NCBI GenBank assembly: GCA_951406725.2
Contig: OX597837.1
Location: 44,454,001-44,518,000, forward strand
Reading direction: 5' to 3'
Length of the DNA stretch: 64,000 bases
DNA from: Octopus vulgaris
Taxonomy: Eukaryota
The notes beneath the pieces were generated by a model that was not told the DNA's origin, did not search any database, and worked only from the letters and a program-made list of their open reading frames with translations. Made by a program: the position numbers and the translations under genes. Shown here in pieces: positions 53,748 to 64,000 of this stretch (its first letter is position 1; every line of letters begins with the position of its first letter).

Positions 53748-56700
53748 TTCGTTCCAACGACGACAACACTTGGTGGCGCAGTATCGGTAGTTATTTTCTT
53801 CTGTATTTTAACCATTATGGGTCTTGTTCTTCTTGTAGTTGTTATTTGTTTATTGGTGCTGTGTATACGTGCTAGAAAACTAATGCCCATCTTCCCTTTC
53901 CAAAACTCTTTCAATGGCCTATCGAATGTAGCTAAAAACAATTCGACAGACATCTTTTCAGACAATGCTAAGAACAAAAACCAGCAAGCTGCGTCTTTGG
54001 CGCCGTTGCGCCGACACGGAGCTGGGAAGCTGTCAGTTTCTTTAGGTAAGGACCAGAACGGTTCACTTATGATTAAATCGGTCACCTCTAAAAACGAATC
54101 AAAAAGACCAGCCTTGAATATAAAGGAAAGCGACACTTTTGGTGCTCCCCCTCGACTCACTCGTTCATTGACCCCTGTACATTTGGAAGTTCCCAAAAGA
54201 CCCCCATTGCAGAAATTAGACGAAAGGCCCGCTAAGAACAACAATTTTGTTCAAAGTAACGAAGTAATAGTTGAAATCGAACGTCCGCCCACAAGAAACC
54301 GCTATGGAAAATCAGAGTTGCAAGAACTACGTCAGCAACTCACATCAGATCGAACTTCCAATAACGAGACCGAAACTTTATGTCTACCATCAATGGCCGT
54401 CAAAACCCCGTTGGAATCAGAGAAACTACGCAGAAGAAAAGCAAGATTTAATAAGGAAATCAACAGAAAAAGTAAATATGGCTACAACAACAATAATAGA
54501 AGTGACAGAAATAACGAAGGTATGTCCGGTGACAGAAGATCTTTGAAGAGAAGCGAAGGAAGGAGGTCATTTAAACGTTCACCTGAGACAGTTAGACAGA
54601 GTTCTGCCTTAAAGTTGAACCATAGATTAAAAAGATATTCTCCCGGAAACACAATTAGGAAACTCCCCGGCATCGAGAGAGCTGAGTTACCAAAGACAGA
54701 GCAAGAGAATGCAAGTACTGTGTCCCGATTACCAACCAAGTGCAGAGTGACATTAGATGACTGTTCTGGTATTAAAGAGAGGCCACCTTCTGTTCCCCCA
54801 AGAACATGGATTATGGAACCAAATATTGAACGAGTAAGTTCTCCGTCTTTTCAGAAACGAGACGACCGCCTGAATCAATCTCTCAATGTCTATAATAAAA
54901 GTTCTCTTTTAGCGAAGAAAGAAGAAATTTTGTCGAAACGAATTTCAATGTCGCTCGATCGGACACGATGTAGTAGTAACAGAAACTCTGATGAAGCGCT
55001 GCTACCTTTAGCCGTCGACGTAGATCATTCTTCAACAACATTGTCGTCGTCTTACGAAGATACATGGCCGCCAAAAATGCCGCCAACTGTACAGACCTCA
55101 TATGGTATTCCGTGTCAACCAGCAACGAGAACCACCAAAGAAATCGATAATGTTGACGGTGATGACAATAACAACAACAACAGACACAAAAACAGTAAGG
55201 ATAATAATAACAGCAATGATATCCTCATAAATGAAGTGAAGAGAAAATTGAAAAAATATAGGCCAACTTTATGTCCGGATAATTTGAGTCACCATACCGA
55301 TCCGCCTTATATAAATATGTCACGATCGCCAAACGCTAGGACACCACGAGTAAAATCCCCTGCAGAGTCGACAAACACTCCGAAAACAAGTTGTGTTAAC
55401 GTCCCCGAATCTGACAATGTTTACGCTTCAAAGTCTTACAGTAGCAGATGTGAAGATGGTTATTTAGAACCGTTTTTGAGGAGTTCCTGCCTTGAAGCTG
55501 ATTTAATTGCGAGAGCAAAGCTAGAGTTAATATTAAAATATGCAGAACAACAAAGACAATTGAAAAAACTTCAGAAACAGCAAAGAAGCGAAACTCTGGA
55601 GAACTTGTCTTCTACGCTCGATGTTGAAGACCTTCTGGGAATGACCAGCAATTTCACTGATATTTCCACCGAAACAAACAAAATGGATAAACGTATTTCT
55701 CCTAATTATTTCGAATGGCAGAAATCATTGGGACTAACGGAGGTGGATTCCTCTCTGGCTTTTTACCCGACACCCAGTTTCGATACTAGACACCTCAAGA
55801 AATTCAGGGCTACGAAGGACCACCCCGAATCACTCCGGGAAACAACGATTTCGTCATCTCAGAATTCTACCACTGTCGCTGCCTCCACCACTCTCACTGC
55901 CAACGCCGCTACTGCTACTGCTGCTGCTGCTGCTACTACTACTACTACTACTACTACTACTACTACTACTACTACTACTACTACTACTACTTTGCCCGAA
56001 GAAGCTACTGTTTCGACTTCATCAGCGTTTTCATCACTACCACGGACAGCACAGCAGCAACTAAGGTTAAGATCTTCACCCCTACCTCCGACACCACCAC
56101 CACCACCACCACCACCGTCTAAGTCATCGTCATCACCATCATCATCATCATTACCAACGTCGACGTCGTCGCCATCGTCTTCCATCTCGTCGTCGTCGTC
56201 GTCGTCGTCGTCGTCGTCGTCAAACATTTTCTATTACCACTCCGGTCATGTCACTTCCTACGGTCAGTTTATGGTGGACGCGCCACTCTACCAAAGAACG
56301 AACATCGAAGAATACCTGCCCGTCGCTTTCCACCATGTTGAATTATCCGTAACGCCAACAGCACCGGCGAGGAGTGAACGGCCACGACCATCGCTACGAC
56401 CACAACCGCCACCACCACCACCACCACCGCCGCCGCCGCCGCCACCAACACCACTACCGTCGCCGGCGCCGCCACTAGCATCAACACTTTCGCCAGCCTT
56501 GTCGCCATCGCAGCTTCTACTGTTACCTGTATGCGCGTTATCGCAAACACCTTTGCTGCCAATGTCTTCGGGATCATCTCCAGCATTAACTGTTTTATCA
56601 TCTATACCCACGTCCCCACCATCAACAGTCACGACAGCGGCAATGACAGCAACAACAACAACAACAACGGTGACGATAATGACAATAGCGACAGAGTCTA

Positions 56701-63729: not shown

Positions 63730-64000
63730 AATCCCTATTCAAATGGCGAGTTTTTCGGTGCCGTCGGAGTGTTGCTGTTCATAATAATAATTTTGATAGT
63801 AGTAATAATTTTGGGTTATTGTTGGTGGCGAAAGCAAAGAGATAACGACGACGGTGACAGTGAGGCGAACTTAGCGACGAAGCCGTCAGCCATCGCAGAG
63901 TACGACAATCTTTCGAAGAATTCTTCCAAGATGAACGGCATTGAAAACAATGCTGCAAATTTATCAGGCTTACTAGAGAGCGGTGATCTTCCAAAAGAAG
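63730..64000 (+). CDS. Second transmembrane exon B (TM plus a different cytoplasmic tail), truncated by the window end
   Basis: Acceptor ttttttctatatttttcag. Phase-0 open frame NPYSNGEFFGAVGVLLFIIIILIVVIILGYCWWRKQRDNDDGDSEANLATKPSAIAEYDNLSKNSSKMNGIENNAANLSGLLESGDLPKE. A TM is followed by a basic stop-transfer RKQR, with no stop codon before the window end. Confidence 0.85.

Follow-up and report, generated by a model that had tools for sequence, protein, structure and literature searches.

Adhesion proteins with alternative forms of transmembrane segment (TM) and tail are already known, and this general picture is not changed by the locus described here. For nectin-2, the passages of PMC8779676 on the alpha and delta splice forms describe one adhesion ectodomain with two versions of the TM and cytoplasmic region, one of which dominates per cell; according to parts of PMC2185068, the C-terminal motifs also differ between the forms. 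In Drosophila, the adhesion ectodomains of Dscam1 and N-cadherin are followed by alternative TM segments, from exon 17 and exons 18a/18b, respectively (passages of PMC10156172 and PMC2655722). CDHR5, a mucin-like protocadherin of the Cr-3 subfamily, has alternatively spliced membrane-proximal Thr/Ser/Pro repeats of ~31 aa (passages of PMC10916864 and PMC8691648), and combines this spliced mucin stalk with tail-dependent apical targeting (PMC10916864, in part). At the RNA level, a composite terminal exon results when splicing ignores a donor and the message keeps the sequence following it; such exons account for 1,648 of the 2,675 assembled intronic-polyadenylation isoforms in the human atlas described in passages of PMC5928244.

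The window, i.e. the whole stretch of 64,000 nucleotides that was analysed (G000:C24:44454001-44518000, + strand), is from the Octopus vulgaris genome (2.8 Gb, 227 contigs), and 200 kb of flanking sequence were included on each side. It carries a gene that codes for a signal peptide, three cadherin repeats (EC1-EC3), ten phase-0 mucin exons and stretches for TM and tail, in this order. The features are:

As far as 17.5 kb upstream of the window, + strand: four coding exons that include the start codon and the signal peptide
553..642, + strand: cadherin exon (end of EC1, start of EC2) with a GC donor, found by tblastn of O. sinensis XP_036368702.1 (93%)
1909..2013, + strand: cadherin exon (EC2)
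6376..6492, + strand: cadherin exon (EC2)
8921..9061, + strand: cadherin exon (EC2-EC3 linker)
9951..10035, + strand: cadherin exon (EC3), phase-1 donor
15474..15577, + strand: cadherin exon (EC3)
17699..17764, + strand: final cadherin exon (EC3), phase-0 donor
26446..48851, + strand: ten Ser/Thr/Pro-rich mucin-like exons, phase 0, 72-117 nt, weak donors
26446-26523, 28646-28738, 30522-30614, 34300-34410, 35105-35215, + strand: mucin exons 1-5
38015-38131, 39946-40038, 41799-41888, 43491-43577, 48780-48851, + strand: mucin exons 6-10
53748..53786, + strand: 39-nt juxtamembrane exon A' with the internal 5' splice site TCG/GTAGTT, the switch point (contigs of runs X1, X2, X3)
53787..58190, + strand: intronic ORF in frame with A', coding for TM-A and a low-complexity tail of ~1,440 aa, with an in-frame ATG at 53817 and the stop codon at 58188-58190
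58191..63729, + strand: remainder of the last intron, with AATAAA at 58244 and 58340, SINEs, microsatellites and an A12 run at 60052
63730..64000, continuing to 64716, + strand: terminal exon B with TM-B and an acidic tail that contains YDNL twice and a C-terminal NPVY (O. bimaculoides LOC106871506 isoforms)

The exon for the signal peptide is located 17.5 kb 5' of the window start and is followed by ten further exons that encode the three cadherin repeats, and the ectodomain is thus spread across 11 small exons. Pfam family PF00028 was found above its cut-off of 28.8 bits in P0001 (49.1 bits) and P0017 (43.2 bits), and the structure predicted for the ectodomain of O. sinensis (pLDDT 77) matches cadherin structures with three repeats. 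With all exons included, the predicted proteins have 994 aa (B form) and 2,133 aa (A form). The exon at 553-642 has the donor GCAAGT; it is absent from the genome's own model P0001 and included in the O. sinensis model. A 1.8-kb microsatellite of the (ATT)n type (13657-15450) lies directly 5' of the acceptor at 15474, which belongs to a cadherin exon of EC3. The region 21190-21250, with a repeat-like acceptor, is the last exon in the O. sinensis RefSeq protein XP_036368702.1 and in A0A0L8HD78 from O. bimaculoides; these models, which end there, predict a TM-less form.

The mucin exons are cassettes, as isoforms from O. bimaculoides vary in them, and all ten are in phase 0, as had been noticed in the initial annotation. 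Those at 28646-43577 are tandem duplicates with common acceptor and donor flanks, and the copy number of mucin exons differs between the loci of O. vulgaris and O. bimaculoides. One contig from run X3 has a loose end before 53747 which corresponds to the end of the mucin exon 26446-26523. This junction, 26523->53748, shows that an upstream exon of the gene reaches the acceptor at 53748 and that nine mucin exons can be skipped.

In the initial annotation, 53748-58190 had been considered as one exon A, for which the acceptor at 53748, the open frame up to the stop codon at 58188-58190 and a TM at codons ~12-41 were all confirmed. However, its first 39 nt (53748-53786) form a separate exon, A', and these provide the upstream exon of B, for which no candidate had been seen. 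The donor TCG/GTAGTT at 53786 is weak (5/9 consensus matches) and similar to those of the mucin exons. Contigs from four runs were aligned to 53300-55900 for the junction test, and the junction 53786->63730 was found in three of these runs, which are from three studies (X1, X2, X3). In each of the three, a single contig covers 53747-53786 and continues unbroken into at least 126-255 bases of B. These runs are treated as RNA solely from the splice junctions in their contigs, 0 of the 24 runs being recorded as RNA. In run X16, A' is diverged and the junction 53786->63730 was not seen; X16, being without junctions, was used for sequence comparison only. The same arrangement is found in O. bimaculoides, where all 21 RefSeq-derived proteins that contain B (LOC106871506 isoforms) have the A' peptide directly N-terminal of it, these 21 representing two annotation releases of ~12 isoforms rather than independent cases. 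Their 14-residue peptide before B corresponds to the first 13 codons of A. In the JGI-type O. bimaculoides model P0014, the A' peptide runs on into TM-A. B is the only tail with an observed junction. As A' is common to both routes, A and B are not mutually exclusive, contrary to what had been proposed, and the last intron begins with the stretch for TM-A and its tail. The choice is between use and non-use of one 5' splice site and not between two acceptors.

For exon B, the acceptor at 63730, the TM and YDNL were seen as annotated, and the exon continues beyond the window to a stop codon at 64716. B codes for 328 aa and ends with NPVYDSIRL, so that the C-terminal residues are SIRL in B and SSVY in A. 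No relation between TM-A and TM-B was detected (14% of block shuffles reach an equally high score). A and B are each single copy, and a genome-wide search revealed neither a paralogue of A nor a second copy of B. Outside octopus-like sequences, no A- or B-like tail was found among the best 150 matches listed, which are mostly generic cadherins, in searches limited by length and words. One relative of B, P0027, has 60% identity. No Pfam family scored above the cut-off for either tail, and a search of the ESM Atlas gave no match at 0.9 or more.

The open frame at 53748-58190 comprises 1,480 codons without a stop, while the other two frames have 61 and 127 stops. Behind the donor at 53786 there are 1,467 open codons, with a chance of ~1e-36 at the same composition, and this ORF occupies 4.4 kb at the 5' end of the last intron. 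TM-A, the hydrophobic stretch near its start, is followed by RARK.

Several comparisons indicate how this frame has changed. Contigs from run X2 (organism B) carry 41 changes in 53867-55900, and the 40 listed ones, which were counted, are 18 synonymous and 22 non-synonymous; with 22% of sites being synonymous, pN/pS is 0.35 (p = 0.001). In 56500-58190, the 11 listed changes are 4 synonymous and 7 non-synonymous. X2 differs at 54 of 3,379 positions in the ORF (1.6%) and at 37 of 925 just 3' of the stop (4.0%, p = 3e-5), where some of the 37 differences are clustered and may be misaligned indels. The indels in X16 are in frame in all five listed events in the A ORF and in one of ten outside (p = 0.002); losses of 2 bases and of 1 base that are separated by five bases were counted as one event, and three rows in a SINE were excluded. 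At the protein level, A is 87% identical to O. bimaculoides P0014 in codons 1-720 and 84% in codons 1000-1474, with 45 of 47 residues identical in codons 14-60. The corresponding values are 62% for EC2-3, 69% for B and 6/13 for A', which places A first in conservation among the coding parts of the locus. As judged from these sequence comparisons, the A ORF is under purifying selection.

The ectodomain (1909-17764) and B (63730-64716) diverge from O. bimaculoides far beyond A, and nearby intron DNA differs by 7-11% in X16. Compared with O. sinensis, EC2-3 shows 90% identity, and the changes are clustered in EC3. The fast divergence of ectodomain and B hints at positive selection, if the pattern of substitutions is taken at face value.

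We consider it probable that the locus is one cadherin-mucin gene with a splice from A' to B, in which the weak donor at 53786 may be left unused to give a likely minor isoform with TM-A and the tail of 1,440 residues. When the donor is used, the ectodomain would be joined through the variable mucin stalk to TM-B and the acidic tail; when it is not, the same ectodomain would be followed by TM-A and a long disordered Pro/Ser/acidic tail. The A form would then represent either a composite terminal exon or a retained-intron read-through isoform; A would be translated within the same protein as the ectodomain and would be the rarer form. Its RNA would end in the intron near 59.9-60.0 kb or retain the whole intron. 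Of the earlier proposal that one ectodomain is combined with two unrelated TMs and tails, the B form thus holds by its junctions, and the A form of the protein is a reasonable inference from the conserved in-frame ORF, but the two are not equal in the present data. By analogy to CDHR5 and nectin-2, the product may be an apical or junctional adhesion protein with a reach set by the number of mucin exons. The tail would set trafficking or cytoskeletal coupling, the tyrosine motifs of B being of the sorting type and A possibly acting as a long disordered scaffold.

The contig cover of the intron is compatible with this isoform but also with other sources of RNA. Within 53300-55900 the A ORF is covered in all four runs. 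Contig depths in X1, X2 and X3 are 103.5, 423.6 and 31.4 at the junction and ~3-4, 10-15 and 2.5-6.6 in A; contig depth does not rank parts of a gene or measure the level of an isoform, and the A form is therefore only presumably minor. The gaps in cover at 53787-53866 in X2 and at 57471-58329 in X16 were not taken as absence. The intron upstream of A' is without cover in X2 and X3 although the A ORF is covered there, which speaks for the isoform, and it is covered in X1 (8.1) and X16 (27). Downstream, the AATAAA that had been noted near the end of A is present at 58244, but its use is not supported, since contigs from X2 and X4 run through it. Contigs pass the stop codon and both AATAAA motifs and extend to 59094-59908 in X2, to 59177 in X4 and to 60121 in X16. 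Given this cover and that of the upstream intron in X1 and X16, unspliced RNA could account for part of the signal. X2, X4 and X12 have no cover at 59916-60037, where X16 continues; this is ~140 bases before the A12 run and is a weak hint of an end. Altogether, the pattern is compatible with a long 3' UTR that has its end near 60 kb, with retention of the last intron or with captured unspliced RNA.

Two annotated splice sites within A were checked against the same contigs and rejected. The genome's own model P0001 has a donor at 55742 which is joined to B, resulting in two TMs; contigs from all four runs cross 55742, with no loose end there among those listed. P0014 has a donor near 58172, and contigs from X2, X4 and X12 cross this site, again without support among the loose ends listed. 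An annotated protein that joins the ectodomain to the full A was not found among proteins with lengths of 814-2590.

A could instead be a nested single-exon gene within the last intron, which starts at the ATG at 53817 and has an N-terminal signal anchor, while the cadherin gene has tail B only. The A contigs begin at 53797, 53867, 53791 and 53978, so that in all four cases the start is 3' of the donor, none is linked to A' and no contig bridges 53786/53787. However, contigs cannot reveal transcript starts, and an assembler presumably prunes weak branches next to a strong path. Downstream of the ATG there are 18 hydrophobic residues and then a basic stop-transfer stretch, an arrangement conserved in O. 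bimaculoides, and A is far better conserved than the exons on either side. On the other hand, the 10 codons from the donor to the ATG are in frame, stop-free and hydrophobic, and 9 of the 10 are identical in both species. The relation to the neighbouring cadherin gene points the same way. TM-A and the TM exon at +242572 in this gene are alike, with only 0.4% of block shuffles scoring as high, and the match spans the donor and includes the part before the ATG; for TM-B, 24% of block shuffles score as high. The likeness was chosen by eye as one of five comparisons and is absent from the HMMER search of the genome. It suggests that A' and TM-A have long been coded together as a unit, and it weakly favours an old exon with A' and TM-A over a gene that starts at 53817. 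On balance, we regard a nested gene as unlikely.

A second alternative is that A is a former terminal exon which has been bypassed and is beginning to decay, the RNA being derived from the unspliced or slowly spliced last intron. This would be in agreement with the flat cover into the non-coding intron and the cover of the upstream intron in X1 and X16. It would also agree with two disruptions of the frame. In a single X2 contig, of depth 10, the A6 run after 55250 is longer by two A, so that the frame would stop at 55285, near codon 513; in P0014, ~45 residues in the low-complexity middle are out of frame as judged by eye. Yet decay is at odds with the pN/pS of 0.35 and the in-frame indels. 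Moreover, the ORF 3' of the X2 frameshift is still less diverged than non-coding DNA (7/971 at 56500-57470 vs 4%). Assuming that X16 and P0014 are from the same or close species, 4.7 stops would be expected among 131 changes under neutrality, while there is none in the matching part of P0014. We thus consider decay quite improbable.

A third alternative treats A and B as terminal exons of the strictly mutually exclusive type, in which mucin exons would be spliced directly to 63730. The phases permit this, and rare variants are lost from contigs, but it is highly improbable given the contigs that run unbroken from A' into B in X1, X2 and X3 and the A' peptide before B in all the O. bimaculoides proteins. 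The junction 48851->63730, which had been proposed for it, was not seen among the contigs aligned here.

Returning to the preferred reading, one gene with an optional donor at 53786, a more speculative extension concerns its origin. An old terminal exon A, with a TM type in common with the neighbouring cadherin, may have been left out once a new donor arose inside it and brought in B, with both forms being kept and tissue-regulated. In such a CDHR5-like protein, the entire membrane anchor and signalling tail would be exchanged at a single weak 5' splice site immediately in front of the TM, and the combination of mucin cassettes and tail would provide a code of length x tail. We consider this possible at best. 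If it were true, the ectodomain would evolve faster than the intronic tail, and the ten in-phase cassettes would provide the length component of the code.

If the A form is real, a coding frame of 4.4 kb is unannotated in a terminal intron and has been overlooked by RefSeq-type annotation. The public models would then be wrong in three species, namely the two-TM fusions P0001 and P0014, the truncated model of O. sinensis and the RefSeq isoforms with B only. The locus would also show clearly how a composite terminal exon can replace, rather than delete, the TM and tail, and it would provide a testable model for the gain of a new C-terminus.

The + strand was scanned for TM exons from 17765 to +263000. 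Besides A and B, this revealed only two exons: the one at +199807 resembles ionotropic receptors, and the one at +242572 is the TM exon of the separate cadherin gene. Further TM exons of the gene itself, which had been suspected downstream, are not present in this range. The separate gene (window +228390 to +243399; G000:C24, ~44.68-44.70 Mb, + strand) is a second short cadherin gene with a similar exon build. A third one is located at G000:C24:44799994-44832247 on the - strand (annotated as CAI9740387.1/CAI9740388.1); its annotation includes two forms of the C-terminus, and its identity to the ectodomain is 35%. Both are within 380 kb and form a small cluster of CDHR-like cadherins, and the locus points to such a cluster of short, fast-evolving proteins in octopus. 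Between the cadherin-mucin gene and the next cadherin there are exons on both strands that resemble ionotropic glutamate receptors (+115167, +125829 on the - strand, and +199693 to +204743); these frames at ~+115, +126 and +200 kb are presumably of ionotropic receptors by their motifs. Upstream, the exons at -185284 to -177311 resemble NADP-isocitrate dehydrogenase, and several LINE-like reverse-transcriptase frames occur at -37 to -21 kb.

We found no publication that names LOC106871506 or the four linked accessions. Among the publications listed on cadherin-mucin isoforms in octopus, none deals with this gene, which is also not mentioned in passages of PMC11431876.

The initial comparison, with the clustered protocadherins in reverse, is not applicable. 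Additional TM exons do not form an array at this locus, and the two forms are unequal in the data. Clustered protocadherins have the ectodomain in one large exon and form a tandem array, while the ectodomain of the octopus gene is distributed over small exons; protocadherin frames of ~800 codons are located on contig C14. Dscam1 exon 17 and N-cadherin exons 18a/18b are mutually exclusive exons in the passages cited above, whereas octopus B requires the first 39 nt of A. A further difference is that the octopus TMs are not detectably related and that both stretches are terminal.

With CDHR5, the octopus gene has in common few EC repeats, alternatively spliced membrane-proximal mucin repeats and poor conservation between species (passages of PMC10916864 and PMC8691648). 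Two Cys in EC1 (Cys29 and Cys101 in P0036) have a spacing like that of C5 and C73 in mature CDHR5, where these form the EC1 disulfide between strands A and F; CDHR5 has four EC repeats compared with three in octopus (PMC8691648, in part). As far as described there, the long and short forms of CDHR5 have one TM and tail in common, while the octopus gene has ten cassette exons. CDHR5 also has a PDZ-binding motif at its C-terminus and binds CDHR2, while the octopus tails end with SIRL (B) and SSVY (A). Sequence and fold matches of the octopus ectodomain are spread over many cadherins, without preference for CDHR5.

Composite terminal exons and intronic polyadenylation of the IgM heavy chain type resemble octopus A in that sequence is kept behind an unrecognised donor, and the octopus gene has the spliced form via the internal donor (53786->63730 in three of four runs). 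The cases in the passages of PMC5928244 mostly lose the TM or are truncated, while octopus A would add a TM of its own and 1,440 residues.

NECTIN2 and the octopus gene both have one ectodomain with two TMs and tails, a likeness at the level of protein forms in which the octopus A form is the predicted one. The ectodomain has an Ig fold in NECTIN2 and is a cadherin in octopus. The tails of nectin-2 are short. One ectodomain with two TMs and tails is thus already known from nectin-2 alpha and delta, and what is unusual in octopus is the size of the intronic tail.
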